Shown here in pieces: positions 56,230 through 64,000 of a DNA stretch of 64,000 nucleotides. Made by a program: the position numbers and the translations under genes. Origin of the DNA: Candidatus Poseidoniaceae archaeon (lineage in GTDB: Archaea > Thermoplasmatota > Poseidoniia > Poseidoniales > Poseidoniaceae); NCBI GenBank assembly GCA_949372875.1, contig CASIAW010000006.1:4966-68965 (forward strand), in the 5' to 3' direction. The notes beneath the pieces were generated by a model that was not told the origin of the DNA, did no database searches, and saw only the letters and a program-made list of their open reading frames with translations. Position 1 is the stretch's first letter, and each line of letters opens with the position of its first letter.

Positions 56230-58695
56230 ATGGGATTGAGCGCAAGCAACAGTGACGAGGCTCTTGATGCTGCTCGCAGGAAGCGAGAAAACGCTGACAT
56301 AGTCTCTCTTTCTGCACTTCGGTCACAATTCACATCGACGGCTACATCCTCTCTCGATCAAGCAACAATGACGAGTGCTCGTTTCCGACAAGAAGAGCGA
56401 TTGAGAGCAGATCTCAGACGCGAACGCAGAATCCGACAGCAAGCAATCACCGAACGTGTGAACGTCATGCAAGAAGCATTAGCCAGTGATTTAGCTGTGC
56501 AACATGAACTGACTCTGGATTCACTTGAAAAAGAGATGAGAGAGGAAATGGAGCGTGATTTGAGTACGCTCGAGCGTGATTCACTTGCTCGTGAAGAATC
56601 TCGTATGCGAGGGGAACTTGAACTACGGCTCAATCGCCAACTCGAAACGCTCCAAGACAAACTCGATGTCGAACAGGACATGCGCCTTGAAGAACATAAA
56701 GCGCAACTAAAAGCACAAATTGAAACCCAACTTCAGGATGAACACCGTCAACGTCTCGACATTCAAAAAGAACGACTTGCAATGGAATATAATCAAGAAT
56801 TGCAACGCAGAGTTCGCGAGATTGAAGCAAATATTGAGCATGAGATGGAAGAACGGTTCAAGGAAATGGAAGTTTCAGAAATTTCTCGCCTTGAAGAAGG
56901 TCATGCTGCTCGACTCGCTGAACGCGAGGAGCAATTACGCCGAGGTATCCGAACCCGCCTTGAACAACAACTCCGTACTCGCTTAAAGCAACGTGAAGCC
57001 CGCTTGAAGGCTGAATATGAACGTCGTAGTCTCCGCCTCGAAGAGGATATTGCAGAACAATTACAGGTTGAACTTGAAGGACGTCTCCGTCAAGAAACCG
57101 ACGATTTGGAAGAAAGAATGCGAGAAGATGTGGAATTAGCAATTGCTCGACGAAGAGATGAACTACGAGTCGAAATCGAACAACAATTGCAGACACGTCA
57201 TGCAGAACGTCTTTCAGAGCGTAAGTCTCGACTTCGAGAGAAATATGACATCACCTTTTCCAAGGCAGTGGATGATATTTCACGCTCTCTCAAATCAGAT
57301 GTTGAATCCGAACTTGATGTTCGAATGGATGAAGAGTTCAGCAGTTACCGCAACGCTCGAGAGGCTGAAATCCAAAACCGACTAGCACGTTATCGATATG
57401 AACGTGAAGCAGAACTTCGAGATCAACTTGAAAATCAATACGAATCAAAGAAGGTCGACTGGTCCGAACGTCTAGAGTTAGAATTCCAATCTCGTGAGGC
57501 ATCTGCTCGTAAAGCGATTATGTCTGAAGTGGATGCAGGTCTACGAAATGAACGCCTGACCTTTGAAACCGATCTTGACCTTCTCAAAGAAGAAACCTCA
57601 CTCGAACTTGAAGTCGATATGGAAGACCGTCTCAACGAATTCCGAGTCCGCAAGGAAGAGGAAGTTGCAACACAACTTGAACGACAACTGGACAAGCGTG
57701 AAGAAATCATGCGAAACAAGGCACTTATCGATGTTCGCAAGCGTGAGACTCATATTCGTGCAGAGATTGAAGCGCAACTGGGCTTAAAGAGAGCCGAGAT
57801 TCGCACTCGTCTCCAGACCTTAAGTGAGAAAATGGATGCTTTCAAGGAAATGGCCGAAGATCAAATGCGTAGCGCCATCTCAAAGCAAATTGAAGGGGAA
57901 ATCGACACTGCAGAATCGGATGTTCGAACTCGAGAAGCAGAGTTCCGGGAACTTCAATCTACGGACACTCGTGCTGAAAAGCGACAAATGTGGATGCAAT
58001 CCATTTCAGGGCAGAATGCACCTGGGGCAATTGATTCAATGACGCCTGGTGCTCTTGGCGCTCGTTCAAATGCATTAGGCTCCAGTGCTGGACGTGAAAT
58101 GCGTGGTGTACTCTCAGGTCAACAGCAAGCACCTCAACCTCGAATGGGCTTGAGTGGAATGCGTAGTCCGATGACAAGTTCCAAACCATTGGCTCCTCAA
58201 AGCGGTATTCCGCTTGCACGACCAGTCAAAACACCTCTCGGTGGTGGCGATGCACCGTCACTGCCTCAACCAGTTCAAAAGTTGGTAAGAACACCTCTTC
58301 AGCCAATCAGTTCACCCGCTGCAGAAACGCAAATGGAGCAAGTAGTAGAGCCAGTTTCAGAACCTGTAACAGAGGTTGAACCTGTAGCAGAGGCTGAACC
58401 ACCTGTAGAGGAAGTTCAAGAGGAGGAAGTAGTAACAACGCTTCGTCCTATTACAGCTGTCCTTGAAGCACTGGAAACTCCAGAAGTTGTGAAAACAACG
58501 ACGTTGACTCCTCAGCGGCCTCAAATGATTCCAAAGAAAGAACGTGGTTCACCTCCGCAATCAAAACGCGGAGAGGTTCCAAAGTCTGGGGACGTAACCG
58601 TCTTGAAGCCTGTTCAGAGACTGACTCCACTCAAACTGACCCCTCCGACTCAAGCCTCTGATTCAGAAGAAGAAGGCGAAGATGAAGACGAGTGA
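56230..58695 (+). CDS. Long E/R-rich coiled-coil protein with Pro-rich disordered C-terminus
   Basis: About 580 aa proline-free E/R/L/Q helical region followed by P/T/E-rich tail; no ATPase or TM motif. Confidence 0.85.
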   Translation: MGLSASNSDEALDAARRKRENADIVSLSALRSQFTSTATSSLDQATMTSARFRQEERLRADLRRERRIRQQAITERVNVMQEALASDLAVQHELTLDSLEKEMREEMERDLSTLERDSLAREESRMRGELELRLNRQLETLQDKLDVEQDMRLEEHKAQLKAQIETQLQDEHRQRLDIQKERLAMEYNQELQRRVREIEANIEHEMEERFKEMEVSEISRLEEGHAARLAEREEQLRRGIRTRLEQQLRTRLKQREARLKAEYERRSLRLEEDIAEQLQVELEGRLRQETDDLEERMREDVELAIARRRDELRVEIEQQLQTRHAERLSERKSRLREKYDITFSKAVDDISRSLKSDVESELDVRMDEEFSSYRNAREAEIQNRLARYRYEREAELRDQLENQYESKKVDWSERLELEFQSREASARKAIMSEVDAGLRNERLTFETDLDLLKEETSLELEVDMEDRLNEFRVRKEEEVATQLERQLDKREEIMRNKALIDVRKRETHIRAEIEAQLGLKRAEIRTRLQTLSEKMDAFKEMAEDQMRSAISKQIEGEIDTAESDVRTREAEFRELQSTDTRAEKRQMWMQSISGQNAPGAIDSMTPGALGARSNALGSSAGREMRGVLSGQQQAPQPRMGLSGMRSPMTSSKPLAPQSGIPLARPVKTPLGGGDAPSLPQPVQKLVRTPLQPISSPAAETQMEQVVEPVSEPVTEVEPVAEAEPPVEEVQEEEVVTTLRPITAVLEALETPEVVKTTTLTPQRPQMIPKKERGSPPQSKRGEVPKSGDVTVLKPVQRLTPLKLTPPTQASDSEEEGEDEDE

Positions 58696-58759
58696 AGAGA
58701 AAAAATCTCTTGATGCCTCCAAGGGTACGCTTCATATCGCTAAAGGTCCTCGGGATACT

Positions 58760-61195
58760 ATGAAGAGACTCGTCGTTCTTCTTATCGCAGCATTGATGCT
58801 ACCAATTGCTGCAGTTGTTCCACTGGCATCAGCTTCAGGCTCCTCTCTTGTCGATGGGGGATATACTCAAGAAAATGAACCGAGTTTTGTATATTGGAAA
58901 CAAATGTATGATGGTTCCATTTTGACTGTTGATACGACAGGTAATTTGAGCGTTAACAGTTTTGTTAGTGGTTTCCTTATCCCTCAATGGACCATTGACT
59001 TGAATGTTAGTGCAAATTCAGCACGATTAGATTCGGCGCAACAATTGACGGTTGTGTGTCACGATTCTGGAGTTCTAATTGTTCATATGGACCTTCAAAT
59101 CGCAAACCGTAATATTTCTACTTTAGACGCCGTTAATGATGCTGATTGGGATGATGATGGTGATCTTTGGCTTGCATACTATGCAGGACGACGCCGTGCC
59201 GAAGAAATCGATTCCGAGGGCCCAACCGGGGTTGTATCTCCTCAAATTTCAACTGGTTTCAATGGATTTGAAGTCCTCTCCGATGGACGGGTTGTTGTCG
59301 GTGCATACGACAAAAAGGTCTACGTTTCAGGGAATGATGGGACCTTTTTGAGAACTTTAACTGACTCAACTGCAATTGTCAATACGGTCATGGAAGACCA
59401 TAATGAAGATTTAATTGTCGGTACTGCCAATGGCAAACTGTTTCGGTACAATACCACATCTTGGACTGTTGAAACCCTCTCGTTAACACATGGTAGTTCG
59501 ATTGTTTCTATTGAAGAGTTTGATAATTCAACTTATCACATCGGGACTCAAAATGGTCGATTGACTCAGGTTGACGTTACGGGCTTTTCCGAAGGCGAAA
59601 CATATGCTTCCTCTGGGCGCGTCATTGGCTCGTTACAGGCCTTCACCGGTGAACTGTATATCGTCACTTCAACTGCAACATCATCGAAGATTCGATTGTA
59701 TGACTTGGATACAGATGGCGATGGAGTCACCGACCAGGTCGACCTTTTCCCGTTCGAATTCACGCAATGGGAAGACGCTGATGGTGACGGATACGGAGAT
59801 AACCCAAATGGGTATCTTGGTGACGTTTTCCCTACAGATATCACGCAATGGGCAGATGCCGATGGTGACGGCTATGGAGATAATGCTGATGGCACAGACG
59901 GTGATGCTTTCCCAAATAACATTGAACAATGGACTGACTCTGATGGAGATGGATTTGGAGATAATGCAAATGGCATGGAGGGTGATAAATTCAAATTCGA
60001 ACCTTCACAATGGTTCGATACTGACCAAGACGGATACGGGGATAATCCAGAGGGAATAACACCCGATTCTTGTCCAACTGCGAATGGTTTTTCCAAATTC
60101 GATCGATTTGGCTGTCTTGATTCAGACCTCGATGGCTATTCGAACCCAACTGATTCTTGGACCGTGACACAGGGTGCTGACGCATTGCCAGAGCAAGGCA
60201 CGCAATGGAGAGATGGCGATGGTGACGGGTATGGGGACAACATCACAGGACTCTTGCCCGACTCTTGCAACTGGAAAGCAGGAACTTCAACAAAAGCTTG
60301 GATTGTTAACATTACTGCAGATATTGGCTACATCGAAGTTCCTTCCTACGGTTGCGAAGATGCCGATGGTGATGGGTGGGTCGATGTGACTGAGTCACAG
60401 AATATGGATTTAGACCCGAACGAGTATTTTGATGGAGACAACGATGGGGTAGGCTCCAATTCGGACTACGATGACACTCGTCCGTTGATTCAAACTGAAG
60501 AAGACCACTGCATGCTTAATTTTGATGACACATCACTTGCTTGTCAGGGATGGCGTAGTTCCGAATATCAGTCCTATGTGTCGAGAGATAAATCTGACAA
60601 TGAGTCCGACTTAAGTTTTGCAGCATGGAATACCAGCAAAAATGCGGGCTTACTCGACACCAATAAAGTAGATTCAAACACGGTAAAGCAAGTGGCGATG
60701 GTTGGAGGAGGCGCTTTCCTTCTCTTGACGGTCATCATCATCATTGTTGGTGTCTTTGCGAAACGTCGAAAGATGAATTCGTTGGTGAAAATGTACGGTG
60801 TACCGTTTATTCCGACTGAAAATAAATCCGCTGAAAATGAAGCATTAGAAGGTACTGCGGGCCTCTCCGCCCAAGGTGGTATCATTTCTGATTCGTCTTG
60901 GGATGATGAGATTGAAAGTCTTGACTTCTCAGCTCCTCAAGATGGTATCGAAGAGGAAGAATCACCTTCAAACGTTATTGACGCAGAGAGTTTGTATGGT
61001 GGTGAAGAAAGCCTTGAATCGATTGCTGGAATTGAAACTGAAGCCGCTCCAAGCCCTGTGCCAACTCCCGCAGCCGCTCCTGCCCCCGAGACGCCTGTAG
61101 AAGCCCCACCATTACCACCTGGTGGACTTCCAGAAGGATGGACTACGGATCAATGGAAATGGTATGGCCAAGAATGGCTTGATAAGAATCAGTGA
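58760..61195 (+). CDS. Secreted, membrane-anchored beta-propeller protein with TSP3-like repeats and Trp-rich cytoplasmic tail
   Basis: Signal peptide MKRLVVLLIAALML; propeller blades; DADGDGYGDN repeats; TM then KRRK; tail PPLPPGGLPEGWTTDQWKWYGQEWL. Confidence 0.85.
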   Translation: MKRLVVLLIAALMLPIAAVVPLASASGSSLVDGGYTQENEPSFVYWKQMYDGSILTVDTTGNLSVNSFVSGFLIPQWTIDLNVSANSARLDSAQQLTVVCHDSGVLIVHMDLQIANRNISTLDAVNDADWDDDGDLWLAYYAGRRRAEEIDSEGPTGVVSPQISTGFNGFEVLSDGRVVVGAYDKKVYVSGNDGTFLRTLTDSTAIVNTVMEDHNEDLIVGTANGKLFRYNTTSWTVETLSLTHGSSIVSIEEFDNSTYHIGTQNGRLTQVDVTGFSEGETYASSGRVIGSLQAFTGELYIVTSTATSSKIRLYDLDTDGDGVTDQVDLFPFEFTQWEDADGDGYGDNPNGYLGDVFPTDITQWADADGDGYGDNADGTDGDAFPNNIEQWTDSDGDGFGDNANGMEGDKFKFEPSQWFDTDQDGYGDNPEGITPDSCPTANGFSKFDRFGCLDSDLDGYSNPTDSWTVTQGADALPEQGTQWRDGDGDGYGDNITGLLPDSCNWKAGTSTKAWIVNITADIGYIEVPSYGCEDADGDGWVDVTESQNMDLDPNEYFDGDNDGVGSNSDYDDTRPLIQTEEDHCMLNFDDTSLACQGWRSSEYQSYVSRDKSDNESDLSFAAWNTSKNAGLLDTNKVDSNTVKQVAMVGGGAFLLLTVIIIIVGVFAKRRKMNSLVKMYGVPFIPTENKSAENEALEGTAGLSAQGGIISDSSWDDEIESLDFSAPQDGIEEEESPSNVIDAESLYGGEESLESIAGIETEAAPSPVPTPAAAPAPETPVEAPPLPPGGLPEGWTTDQWKWYGQEWLDKNQ

Positions 61196-61252
61196 ACTCT
61201 GTTTTCCATTCCTTCATGAAGCAGCAACTGAGCCGCTGAGCAGAGAGTAGGC

Positions 61253-61358
61253 AGTGTACTGGGGGACTGAACACCCATTGTACTCTTCCATAATGTCTTG
61301 AGGGGTTTGACAGAACCCTTGCGACTTCGTGGAAATGATATGTCGGTTGTCTGTATCA
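61253..61358. repeat. Structured ~107-nt direct repeat, copy 1
   Basis: agtgtactgggggactgaacacccattgtact...tgtcggttgtctgtatca; matches 62451-62557 with 5 substitutions and 1 indel. Confidence 0.92.
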
Positions 61359-61395
61359 ACCAACAGCGTTCACTACTCGTATCGCTTTGTATTGA

Positions 61396-62373
61396 CTACT
61401 TCCCCTGCTTAAGTTTCTTCCAAAGTTTGGACAGTTCAGAATCACTCTCGATGATTTTCATTATTTTCTGTGGTGTTAATACAGAATCAAAATTAATTTT
61501 GATAGGGAGGTATATTCCAATCTTTTTCTTCAGTTGATTTCTAATTTCTAAAATTTGTTCAAAATCACCAACTAAATCATCTCTTTTGAGATTATGGACT
61601 GAAGTATAAATTTTATCTACACCATATGACCCAATAGCGACATCACCATTTTTCATTTTGTACATGAATCCTTGTCGTGGGTGGCTATTATCTCCTCCTG
61701 AATAAGAGAAATGCCTTAACTCTACATAATGATTTTCATTCACTGATTTGAATGAATTAAATGTGAATGTTTTATCCTTCCATACGTAACCTGCATAGTA
61801 TGAAGAATCAGGTACAAATCCAATTCCGTTTCCTTGGCCATAAGAACCACCGGCACTCTGAGATATTACTAAATCCTCAGATGTGTGAGTATTGCCTCCG
61901 ACAAATGCAATCGATAGAACAAAAATTGATGGAACCATACACATACACATTGCTAACTCTGCTCCATTACTCAAAAGCAGAAGAAAACCCATTAAGGAGA
62001 TTACAAAAAATACTATTCCGAATGTGCTAAAGCTTCTATCAAAATCCATGCTATCAATAATCGAATCTTCGGTGACTATACTGTTTCCACCATGGCCAAA
62101 ACTGCTGAGAACTGTTATGTTGTTATCCATCACTTCGTTGGCAAAATCGATAGCATCGGCAAATTTTTCCGGGTCAAAGCGTGAGGAGAAGTGTTCTCCA
62201 TCAACGAAAAGATAGTGGCGATTTGTTATTACTCCGGTGATGTGTTTACCATTCCAATCTAATTCTGCTACACATTCTGGGCATTCAAAGACATTAGGCT
62301 CTCCTTGAGGAAATATAACCTGCTCGCGACAAATTGGGCATTCTATTTCGGCCATATCGAGTTCTGTATACAT
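61396..62373 (-). CDS. AT-rich orphan membrane protein with N-terminal zinc ribbon and two TM helices
   Basis: CPIC...CPEC; two hydrophobic helices mid-protein; visibly more AT-rich than flanking genes; lies between the two repeats. Confidence 0.75.
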   Translation of the reverse strand: MYTELDMAEIECPICREQVIFPQGEPNVFECPECVAELDWNGKHITGVITNRHYLFVDGEHFSSRFDPEKFADAIDFANEVMDNNITVLSSFGHGGNSIVTEDSIIDSMDFDRSFSTFGIVFFVISLMGFLLLLSNGAELAMCMCMVPSIFVLSIAFVGGNTHTSEDLVISQSAGGSYGQGNGIGFVPDSSYYAGYVWKDKTFTFNSFKSVNENHYVELRHFSYSGGDNSHPRQGFMYKMKNGDVAIGSYGVDKIYTSVHNLKRDDLVGDFEQILEIRNQLKKKIGIYLPIKINFDSVLTPQKIMKIIESDSELSKLWKKLKQGK

Positions 62374-62450
62374 CTAGAGTATAACGATTGAGCCGGCGAC
62401 ACCCTCCTCGCGACACCCACGCGTGACATACACTCCACGCGTCCGTAGCG

Positions 62451-62557
62451 AGTGTACTGGGGGACTGAACACCCATTGTACTTCTTCCATAATGTCTTGA
62501 GGGGTTTGTAAGAACCCTCGCGATTTCATGGAAATGATATGTCGGTTGTCTGTATCA
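62451..62557. repeat. Structured ~107-nt direct repeat, copy 2
   Basis: Same orientation as 61253-61358 and about 94% identical by manual alignment. Confidence 0.92.
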
Positions 62558-62629
62558 GCCCTCAAGAGACGGTGTAAACTTTCGATTACCGAGGTCTCTA
62601 CATCAGAACCTGCTTATCGGCTATCACGT

Positions 62630-64000
62630 TCACTCATTACGACGAATAAATGCTGCACCAAGCAAGCTAAGTGCTGCCAGTACTCCTGTAAAGCCTGGAA
62701 GCGATGAATCCTCGTCGGAAACAGTATCTTTCGATTTAGTTGAATCAAGTGGGAAGGCGTCGTCTGCATCGAGAACGTTATCTCCGTCGTCGTCTGTGTC
62801 TGCATTGTCGCCAGTTCCGTCATTGTCTGTATCCACGGATTCAGAGGAGTCGAGTGGGAAAGCATCGTCTGCATCGAGAACGTTATCTCCGTCATCGTCG
62901 GTGTCTGCATTGTCGCCAGTTCCGTCATTGTCTGTATCCACGGATTCAGAGGAGTCGAGTGGGAAGGCATCGTCTGCATCCGAGAACGTTATCTCCATCA
63001 TCGTCAGTGTCGGCATTGTCGCCAGTTCCGTCATTGTCTGTATCCACGGATTCAGAGGAGTCGAGTGGGAAAGCATCGTCTGCATCGAGAACGTTATCTC
63101 CATCATCGTCGGTGTCGGCATTGTCGCCAGTTCCGTCGTTGTCCGTATCCACGGATTCGGTTGGAGTCAAGTGGGAAGGCATCGTCTGCATCGAGAACGT
63201 TATCTCCATCATCGTCGGTGTCGGCATTGTCGCCAGTTCCGTCGTTGTCTGTATCTACGGATTCGGTTGGATCAAGTGGGAAGGCGTCATCTGCATCGAG
63301 AACTGATCGCCATCGTCATCAGTATCGGCATTGTCGCCAGTTCCGTCGTTGTCTGTATCCACGGATTCAGAGGAGTCAAGTGGGAAAGCATCGTCTGCAT
63401 CGAGAACGTTGTCACCGTCATCATCAGTATCGGCATTGTCTCCAGTTCCATCATTGTCTGTATCCACGGATTCAGAGGAGTCAAGTGGGAAGGCGTCGTC
63501 TGCATCGAGAACGTTATCTCCATCATCATCTGTGTCGGCATTGTCGCCAGTTCCGTCGTTGTCTGTATCCACGGATTCAGAGGAGTCGAGTGGGAAGGCG
63601 TCATCTGCATCGAGAACTGAATCTCCGTCGTCATCGGTGTCGGCATTGTCGCCAGTTCCGTCGTTGTCTGTATCTACGGATTCAGAGGAGTCGAGTGGGA
63701 AGGCATCGTCTGCATCAGAACGTTATCTCCATCATCGTCGGTGTCGGCATTGTCGCCAGTTCCGTCGTTGTCCGTATCTTCAGATTCGGTTGGAGTCAAG
63801 TGGGAAGGCATCGTCTGCATCCGGAACGTTATCTCCGTCATCGTCTGTGTCGGCATTGTCGCCAGTTCCGTCGTTATCCGTATCTTCAGATTCGGTTGGA
63901 TCAAGTGGGAAGGCATCGTCTGCATCCGTCACGTTATCTCCATCATCGTCGGTGTCGGCATTGTCGCCAGTTCCGTCGTTGTCCGTATCTTCAGATTCGG
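62630..64000 (-). CDS. C-terminal part of a TSP3-like repeat surface protein with PGF-CTERM (5' end beyond window; frameshifted in this sequence)
   Basis: DTDNDGTGDNADTDDDGDNVLDADDAFPLDSSESV repeats spread over several frames; ends LPGFTGVLAALSLLGAAFIRRNE. Confidence 0.75.
62740..64000 (-). repeat. Near-identical 105-bp tandem repeat array (about 12 units, 35 aa each)
   Basis: gcattgtcgccagttccgtc recurs every ~105 nt to the window end. Confidence 0.92.

Follow-up and report, generated by a model that had tools for sequence, protein, structure and literature searches.

A conserved 105-nt repeat behind accessory genes of Poseidoniales as a possible cassette-end recombination element

The stretch of DNA analysed here, in the following called the window, comprises 64,000 nt of contig CASIAW010000006.1 in the genome of a Candidatus Poseidoniaceae archaeon (assembly GCA_949372875.1). 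Towards its right end a core gene for an 837-aa protein is followed by a non-coding sequence of ~105 nt, which we refer to as the unit, a gene for a 325-aa protein on the opposite strand, a second copy of the unit, and the 3' end of a surface-protein gene (Table 1). Unit copy 1 is the tail element of the 325-aa gene and unit copy 2 is the tail element of the surface-protein gene on its right. The unit itself is an undescribed, highly conserved non-coding element of Poseidoniales (Marine Group II archaea), and we suggest that it may mark the ends of exchangeable gene cassettes.

Table 1. Features at the locus in window coordinates, followed by copies of the unit and of the B repeat in genome coordinates
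Feature	Position	Strand	Remarks
Core gene, 837 aa, at the edge of a flexible island	58682..61195	+	Copy 1 begins 51 nt past its stop codon
Unit copy 1, core	61244..61349	+	R1 covariance model, 133.6 bits; repeat families D7 and D8; alignment A1
Copy 1, start of weaker 3' extension	61350..61361	+	GTCTGTATCAACC; bears the second arm of the third hairpin; from alignment of copies
Candidate cassette gene, 325 aa	61396..62373	-	Open reading frame list; 35-39% GC vs 44-53% around
Head (5' leader) of the 325-aa gene, A-type module	62374..62444	-	...ACCC..ACCCACGCGTGA...CGCGTCC; ends at the joint with copy 2; from left-flank comparison
Unit copy 2, core	62442..62548	+	R1 model, 125.2 bits; joint GTAG at 62445-62448
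Copy 2, 3' extension	62549..62579	+	TCTGTATCAGCCCTCAAGAGACGGTGTAAAC; seen by eye in many, not all, aligned copies
Surface-protein gene, 3' end	62630..64000	-	Asp-rich 105-nt tandem repeats; ending ...PGFTGVLAALSLLGAAFIRRNE; repeat families D1-D3
Unit pairs of the same genome	C6 66212/67410; C7 2368/5052; C13 12271/14124; C5 167005/169173		
B repeats, examples	G000:C4:233236-233388; C3:189431-189510; C3:191039-191116; C13:4705-4812; C6:72483-72562 (just past the window end)		

A repeat search of the window aligned 61284-61361 with 62483-62560 (78 nt, 92%) and 61247-61284 with 62445-62482 (38 nt, 95%). The pairwise alignment of 61253-61358 with 62451-62557 contains five substitutions and one 1-nt indel. 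Copy 1 opens at a joint, GTAG (61247-61250), and closes with the invariant ...ATGATATGTCGG. The sequence family of the 3' extension of copy 2 recurs on another contig of the same genome, at C7:2346-2382 and C7:5006-5065. A preliminary description of the window had reported two non-coding copies in direct orientation, 37 and 72 nt from minus-strand stop codons, around a single AT-rich gene. The repeat search, the alignment and the R1 scores bear out the copies, the stop codons lie at 61396-61398 and 62630-62632, and the GC content of the gene, the only one between the copies, sets it apart from its surroundings. Three substitutions in stems, each turning a G-C or A-T pair into G.T on the + strand, were likewise found in the pair table. 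The enclosed gene had also been called an orphan, which is not strictly so: 24 of 401 genomes of the order contain a match at E<=1e-5, mostly a weak one.

The same description placed a shared motif, TGAGCCG...GTAG, in front of both copies. The GTAG of this motif is the unit's own first bases. TGAGCCG was unseen in the left flanks of other copies, which were read by eye and not counted (one has GAGCCG), and it therefore looks like chance; we rejected it as part of the element. A coding role for the unit was rejected as well. One minus-strand frame is open in copy 1, yet 1-nt indels between copies shift the frame, and thus the unit is not coding.

The genome to which the window belongs (2.16 Mb in 13 contigs, 94.9% complete) holds eight copies and not two, arranged in four pairs whose members lie 1.2-2.7 kb apart. 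The pair on C7 is located at the start of its contig and the pair on C13 on a 35-kb contig. It should be noted that nearly all genomes compared in this study are metagenome bins. A DNA search recovered the unit from 98/201 genomes of the family and 10/12 genera, with 82-97% identity; among high-quality genomes of the family it is present in 28/41 and was not found in 13/41. A covariance model, R1, built from 48 unique copies (alignment A2), detected the unit in 52/151 genomes of the order, with 44/74 in the family of the window (f1), 7/74 in family f3 and 0/2 in family f2. Genomes differ in copy number, with values between 0 and at least 9. There is a single copy in the complete genome G012, while nine occur in G079, with arrays of 4 strong units within 12 kb on one contig (G079:C3). 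Two copies only, around a fixed gene, had been named in the preliminary description as the outcome that would speak against its reading, and this is clearly not what we found, with eight copies in one genome, an order-wide family and differing neighbours of the copies. Because the unit was not found in 13 of the 41 high-quality genomes, varies this much in number and also occurs as decayed copies, it is dispensable.

When 185,579 species, each represented by one genome, were scanned for an exact 22-mer, 70 stretches were returned. Of these, 68 bear the label Poseidoniales, Poseidoniaceae, Poseidonia, Methanobacteriota or euryarchaeote; the remaining two come from a Bacteroidetes bin (a 2.5-kb contig) and from a contig in a single-cell assembly of Deltaproteobacteria. 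A viral origin of the unit was considered and rejected, since two exact motifs of the unit had no match in IMG/VR and a sensitive BLAST search of a phage collection gave none.

The core genes adjoining the unit (window 56230-61195) share 64-74% DNA identity between the genome of the window and four genomes of the same genus, and 65-69% with a genome of another genus. The unit, at 82-97%, is thus far more conserved than its surroundings. At permissive thresholds (E up to 10 or 1) the matches of Rfam 15 to window 60000-64000 were all of the chance kind, and there were none in nine other loci bearing units and B repeats, a second repeat that is described below; the unit therefore matches no known Rfam family. 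ARAGORN predicted no tRNA or tmRNA at any unit. In the part of the literature reached by a full-text search on repeats, small RNAs and islands of Poseidoniales or Marine Group II, we found no description of the unit.

The counts of position, flanks and pairing given below come from 95 unique copies, of which those in related contexts are not independent. In 64/95 copies a minus-strand open reading frame of at least 80 codons stops at a distance of -21 to +162 nt, with a median of 45, measured from where the core ends on the right. In 17/95 copies a longer plus-strand frame lies to the right of the core, and in 14/95 there is none. In two copies of the genome of the window the core directly abuts the stop codon. 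On the left side we found the 3' end of a convergent gene at 54 copies, the start of the next minus-strand gene at 32 and nothing at 9. The layout of gene, repeat, gene and repeat that had been proposed for the window therefore generalises: units follow accessory genes, the adjoining genes vary, and blocks bounded by units are shared with 99-100% identity by diverged genomes. Units have the same orientation in arrays on G079:C3 and on contigs C6, C7, C13 and C5 of the genome of the window. Inverted pairs on one contig are also common (G023:C1, G084:C3, G150:C5 and G222:C17).

The two flanks of the unit are conserved very unequally. Flanks were counted as alike if 60 nt or more of them aligned with an identity of at least 85%. 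The 95 copies can be combined into 4,465 pairs; in 109 of these only the gene-side (right) flank is alike, in 4 only the left flank, and in 1 both. This asymmetry shows that a gene and its unit form a module joined to unrelated neighbours. The gene-side flanks fall into 16 families, and in the eight largest (3-9 members) every member has a different left flank. In 17 of 19 listed pairs that share the gene side, homology begins within -9 to +11 nt of the start of the unit. Identity profiles of eight pairs follow the same course in all eight, from 100% on the gene side to 76-96% inside the unit and then to the level of unrelated sequence beyond (16-72% per 25-nt window).

Several modules are shared almost unchanged between genomes. 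The region C5:167006-169241 of the genome of the window is 99.55% identical over 2,236 nt to a part of G084:C3, from the left edge of one unit into the next unit, whereas the core DNA of these two genomes is 65-74% identical. G023:C7 and G079:C3 have in common a block of unit, gene and unit with 99.3% identity over 2,071 nt, and a third block, at loci L170 and L171 of genomes G283 and G290, is 99.2% identical over 1,753 nt. The latter two are comparisons within a genus in which core-gene identity between the partners was not part of the comparison. From their sequences, the shared blocks bounded by units appear to be recent transfers. A match to the locus of the window itself was found in G137, a genome of a different genus, where the unit and the 3' end of the 325-aa gene are 92.4% identical over 331 nt, up to the contig end; on the other side homology ceases 8 nt to the left of GTAGGC.

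Modules also carry short sequences in front of the gene, which we call heads. The head of the 325-aa gene belongs to the A-type, and A-type heads are arranged head to head around GGTACC. The B-type head is a repeat of ~80 nt with the form AAGGGT-loop-ACCCTT ... AAGGGCTYGCAGTGGGYC ... CGCTA(G/C)C. This B repeat has 20 nhmmer matches at E<=0.01 in the genome of the window (15 at E<1e-5), all but one of them without a unit. The B repeats mostly lie just upstream of gene starts, often head to head around GCTAGC. Their first hairpin has visible compensatory changes, and the B repeat has no Rfam match. A resemblance of the 3' extension of the unit to the A-type head was seen by eye only and, as the BLAST comparison of flanks did not support it, was rejected.

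In three comparisons between genomes the shared block ends at the same point of the head sequence, directly after ...CGGTA. In two of them (L057/L030 and L056/L125) one genome then continues with GGC and a unit and the other with CC and an inverted head. At the L170/L171 joint one genome runs into an inverted head and the other into an inverted part-unit. All joints that were read have a central TA, as GTAG, CTAG, GTAC or CTAC. The exact ends after GTA point to a site-specific step. We also observed chimeric part-units, at L083:11595-11701 (G084:C3) and ~1750 nt to the right of the unit in L171. In these the first ~66 nt of the unit are fused, at ...CCCTTA/GGTAC (the slash marks the joint), to an inverted A-type head, and a mirror form occurs too. 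Judged by their structure, the chimeric part-units look like products of recombination between inverted elements.

Turnover of the unit can be followed behind one orthologous gene, HxlR, at its 3' end. Eight loci have an intact unit there; in L169 the unit is decayed (28.5 bits) and in L168 it is cut off after ~55 nt. It is absent from L167, where the downstream gene is the same as at the filled site L171. The coding sequences of L164 and L165 are 98.1% identical and their units 78%; for L170 and L171 the values are 100% and 90%. In L162 and L170, 4-fold sites are 61% identical and the units 88%. The divergence of units is thus uncoupled from that of the genes beside them. In 15 pairs with gene-side flanks of 97-100% identity, the units differ at 10-19 positions along the whole length in 11 pairs, and the differences are confined to the left end in 3. 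The interiors of units are thus mosaics, as expected if copies recombine with or convert one another. As a separate observation, the HxlR gene of L172, L173 and L175 (G098:C2, G286:C104 and G142:C92) has behind it a ~70-nt sequence (ATGAGATGCGGGGGGCAGGATTCTCACC...) that is repeated in tandem, with 2-4 copies. In L172 and L173 the array runs into an apparent 3' half of a tRNA gene on the opposite strand, and these arrays are possibly att-like partial tRNA copies, repeated.

We suggest that the unit is a cassette-end recombination element that resembles attC in its layout and is not part of an integron, a reading to which we assign a probability of about 0.5. A module would consist of one gene, sometimes two or three, with a short 5' head and often a unit of ~105 nt past the stop codon, on the opposite strand. 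A (G/C)TA(G/C) core at the end of the unit that faces away from the gene would be the point where modules are joined to each other or to core genes. The unit would act as a recombination site, or at least as portable homology, for insertion, loss and inversion of modules and for their passage between genomes. The role as portable homology is suggested because the unit is nearly identical across the order while the genomes otherwise share little DNA identity; an order-wide unit would permit exchange between genomes too diverged for ordinary homologous recombination. The window would then hold two tandem modules at an island edge, that is, the core gene, copy 1 with the 325-aa gene and its head, and copy 2 with the surface-protein gene. 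We infer from these comparisons both the recombination at or in the unit and the direction of transfer. The mode could be site-specific, with an enzyme acting on the folded + strand or on a palindrome in the first hairpin, or it could be driven by homology, and a site-specific step and homologous exchange or conversion may both act.

Several observations weigh against this reading. The exact joints after GTA number three comparisons in all, and the scattered differences between units agree less well with a single fixed point of crossover than with homologous exchange or gene conversion. A BLAST comparison of the left and right flanks of 70 copies found no terminal inverted repeats or target duplications; it gave 11 weak matches, 7 inverted and 4 direct. 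Both orientations of the unit occur, which is not expected of an integron-type array. Since metagenome bins predominate, some joins could be assembly chimeras, although the key blocks lie inside contigs of 171-268 kb. In four RNA-library runs, none of whose contigs covers the 325-aa gene, neither an excised circle nor an empty allele of this cassette was seen. The strong conservation of the sequence could equally reflect a function as RNA. An enzyme is the further difficulty. In the 94.9% complete genome of the window we found no Y1 transposase, TnpB, resolvase, reverse transcriptase, DDE_3 or DDE_Tnp_1, while control genomes matched; profiles PF13358, PF01609, PF01797 and PF07282 had no match in it. 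The genome encodes two tyrosine recombinases (PF00589), both on contig C2, which is another contig than those of the units, and neither near a unit. One of them scores 124.9 bits. The other, an accessory protein of 431 aa, reaches 24.1 bits against a cut-off of 220 with the XerA/integron-integrase model NF040815. It was found in only 7/201 genomes of the family. As the unit is present in 98/201 genomes and this recombinase lies beside neither unit nor B repeat, we rejected it as a general partner.

The accessory recombinase is 100% identical in five genomes, four of them unit-rich. The recombinase and at least 2.8 kb around it form a 100% identical region (L244; G000:C2:1-2794, also G023:C5, G079:C5, G084:C2 and G129:C59). 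The identity spans different species and two genera, and in three cases the region is found where a contig begins. It probably represents an integrative element or virus that has spread very recently, or else one binned contig common to these genomes.

A fuller form of the cassette-end reading can be proposed only tentatively. In this form Poseidoniales would possess a cassette system of their own, in which the unit as tail and heads of A-, B- and C-type are cut and rejoined at (G/C)TA(G/C). The enzyme would either belong to the host, for example XerA, or be supplied in trans, and might work on the + strand in its folded state. The system would parallel integrons in function and be evolutionarily unrelated to them.

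A serious rival, although we regard it as less likely, is that the unit is, or is part of, a structured non-coding RNA. Selection on this RNA would hold the sequence constant, and recombination would be a side effect, because no other DNA shared by the diverged genomes is nearly identical. The RNA would be a small one of ~125-150 nt from the + strand, running convergently to the gene and overlapping its 3' end in part as antisense, or else an element of a 3' untranslated region on the strand of the gene. The extreme conservation of the unit relative to core genes favours such a role. Over 95 copies the cells of three hairpins are paired at 80-96% on the + strand and 62-86% on the - strand (79.8% and 61.6% for the third hairpin), they contain 581 G.T against 110 A.C, and the alifold energies of the + and - strands are -14.8 and -11.0. 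The + strand, which is antisense to the adjoining gene, is therefore the better folder. Three stem sites toggle between G.U and G-C or U-A, and it is the loop of hairpin 2 in which variable positions are concentrated. Four or more T in a row occur no further than 70 nt downstream of the core in 58/95 copies on the + strand and 27/95 on the - strand. RNA libraries make up 10 of 14 sequencing runs that contain part of the stretch; the run shares, 0.05-0.14, are small, and we draw nothing from them about habitat. Among four RNA-library runs examined, two, from two studies, have both units covered by contigs whose agreement with the window breaks off at 61247 and 61345; these data are contigs that do not show strand, ends or level, and DNA carry-over is possible.

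Other features of the fold weigh against an RNA. RNAalifold on the 48-copy core gave 18 pairs with a covariation term of -0.23 kcal/mol and a compensatory change in 1/18 pairs, and single sequences fold no better than shuffles (z -1.06 to -1.55). The 95-copy alignment, which includes the variable 3' extension, gave almost no structure in RNAalifold, and the 48-copy core was used instead. The hairpins predicted by RNAfold and RNAalifold are local and separate, two or three in number, with no consistent pairing between the 5' and 3' ends of the unit. The preliminary description had proposed that the fold is conserved on the strand antisense to the genes. It is correct that this strand pairs better, but the conservation rests on G.T pairs and a single compensatory pair, so the structure is weakly supported, mainly by conservation and wobble pairs and not by covariation. 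In the left flanks that were read we noticed no conserved promoter-like motif at a fixed distance upstream. The absence of a known Rfam family and the dispensability of the unit, with decayed copies among those found, also speak against an RNA role. Readings of the unit as C/D-box, H/ACA or hammerhead-like RNA were tried by eye and none fits.

It is improbable, in our view, that the unit represents the end of a DNA transposon that is non-autonomous and targets TA, either like a MITE (miniature inverted-repeat transposable element) or carrying cargo, and that is mobilised in trans by a transposase missing from most genomes. Such an element would be multi-copy and patchy, as the unit is, and many copies of the unit lie at contig ends. 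The TA in the centre of all joints would suit it, as would the inverted pairs, in which the starts of the units face outward and flank 2.5-8 kb; the pair on G222:C17 encloses a resolvase, a C5 methylase and an EcoRII-C-like nuclease, that is, a resolvase with a restriction-modification set. There is one solo site of presence and absence (L171 vs L167). The first ~30 nt of the unit resemble the reverse complement of the B end (TAG..ACTG..CCC), with a mean score of 4.3 against 2.4 +/- 1.5 for shuffles; this likeness is weak, as 9% of single shuffles reach 4.3. Against a transposon stand the lack of IS630/DDE_3, IS4/IS5, Y1, TnpB and serine recombinase matches in the genome of the window, the comparison of the left and right flanks of 70 copies, in which no terminal inverted repeat or target duplication was found, and the negative searches of IMG/VR and the phage collection. 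The fixed place and orientation behind a stop codon, and travel with the gene, are also unlike free insertion.

Repetitive extragenic palindromic (REP) sequences, bacterial interspersed mosaic elements, MITEs and mobilisation units flanked by MITEs resemble the unit as multi-copy, structured, extragenic repeats that lie behind stop codons with an orientation bias, are patchy and can bracket genes. The unit is far longer and more conserved than REP sequences and stays with one gene across genomes; no terminal inverted repeats or target duplications were found, nor, in the genome of the window, a Y1 transposase of the REP-associated type (PF01797). REP sequences with such a transposase are short GC-rich palindromes of 20-40 nt with a tetranucleotide head, whereas the unit has ~105 nt and three hairpins.

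Integron attC sites follow each cassette reading frame and fold on the bottom strand, and the chromosomal integrons of Vibrio contain highly similar attC repeats (VCRs). The unit shares with attC sites and with clusters of attC sites lacking integron-integrases (CALIN) the ~100-nt repeat after each accessory gene, the alternation of gene and repeat, the joint at the gene-distal end of the repeat, the better-pairing strand antisense to the gene and a variable, horizontally exchanged cargo. The arrays of 4 units on G079:C3 are also as expected of a CALIN. With respect to position, the 64/95 copies that lie 3' of a reading frame agree with attC; orientation is mixed, with same-orientation arrays and inverted pairs. 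Nevertheless, that units are true attC sites recombined by IntI is very improbable. Canonical RYYYAAC/GTTRRRY boxes, whose absence the preliminary description had already noted, are lacking from the 95-copy consensus on either strand. The unit has three separate hairpins and not one imperfect, end-to-end hairpin, both orientations occur on one contig, the modules bear their own 5' heads, and the core of the joint is (G/C)TA(G/C) and not G/TT. No IntI-like gene was found near any unit examined, and the accessory recombinase, with its 24 bits against a cut-off of 220, lies on another contig. In the main text of a survey of archaeal integrons (PMC9668308) neither Poseidoniales nor Thermoplasmatota nor Marine Group II is named. 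The earlier proposal of a cassette-shuffling site is thus supported at the level of architecture, and a canonical integron is not.

Two other known arrangements can be compared with the proposed cassette-end element. In the pdif modules of Acinetobacter plasmids, one gene or a small set of genes bounded by short sites in either orientation is moved from replicon to replicon by a housekeeping tyrosine recombinase, and the element itself need not encode an enzyme. Sites of the Xer/dif type have two inverted arms of ~11-13 bp, separated by a spacer of 6-8 bp, which XerA binds and cuts. The unit is similar in that genes are bounded by a conserved site in either orientation, and hairpin 1 has, by eye, the general shape of such sites, a 13-6-13 imperfect palindrome with 9/13 symmetric arm positions. 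It differs in being four times longer than a 28-bp dif site and in having its joints at the unit edge, outside the 6-nt spacer. Island sites at tRNA or tmRNA genes are likewise conserved structured sequences of ~100 nt at the edge of a flexible island, with repeats at the borders; the unit, however, is no tRNA, is dispensable and multi-copy, and is repeated as a whole and not as a partial att site.

A functionless local tandem duplication of a 3' flank could be read from C6:67410 and C7:2368, two units that follow paralogous surface-protein genes with a downstream flank common to both, but is refuted by eight copies behind unrelated genes in one genome and by an order-wide family set against 64-74% identity of core DNA.

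The genes around the two copies are in keeping with a flexible island. Neither Pfam nor NCBIfam gave a match for the 325-aa protein, in which CxxC pairs towards the N-terminus and a hydrophobic stretch were seen by eye. The surface-protein gene to the right gave a weak match to a thrombospondin-type-3 model (NF047638), and its C-terminus is presumably of the PGF-CTERM type. Surface-protein genes in the window (62630-64000, - strand) and at C7:121-4982 both contain 105-nt repeats similar to DTDNDGTGDNADTDDDGDNV and encode a C-terminal PGF...RRNE tail. In both places the frame is broken several times inside the repeats, which could be due to assembly error in repeats, phase variation or a pseudogene.

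The core gene for the 837-aa protein has orthologues in 46/46 genomes of the genus. It contains five 81-nt repeats (window 59741-60249, + strand) that encode calcium-binding-like motifs, D-x-D-G-D-G-Y-G-D-N, and whose reverse complement is related to the repeats in the surface-protein gene nearby (inverted repeats I1-I6). In 17/29 loci of relatives the same conserved reverse-strand sequence lies within ~130 nt of the 837-aa gene, with no island between. In L198 this sequence is the 3' end of a convergent gene for 93 aa, which we call gene X. The genome of the window has its gene X on C5 (166126-166398), ~600 nt from the unit pair on that contig. We therefore suggest that the pairs of the window and of C5 are the two ends of one inserted flexible island that was split by the assembly. 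Among the cargo found beside units are surface proteins whose genes contain 105-nt repeats, secreted proteins that belong to no known family, an HxlR regulator, DUF1801 and DUF4357 proteins and a GmrSD/HNH nuclease. Flexible islands typically carry such genes.

Few microbes of the surface ocean are as abundant as Marine Group II archaea, of which we know no cultured representative. If the cassette-end reading is correct, the unit would give a direct handle on horizontal gene flow in this group. It would also provide a sequence tag for pulling cassettes from metagenomes, as attC does for integrons, and a candidate recombination site whose enzyme can be sought. If the unit is an RNA, it would be among the most conserved accessory non-coding RNAs known in Archaea. 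Either reading would explain why assemblies of Poseidoniales genomes break at units. If a cassette system is indeed present, it would mean that abundant planktonic archaea share genes for surface proteins, defence and enzymes across the boundaries of genus and family.

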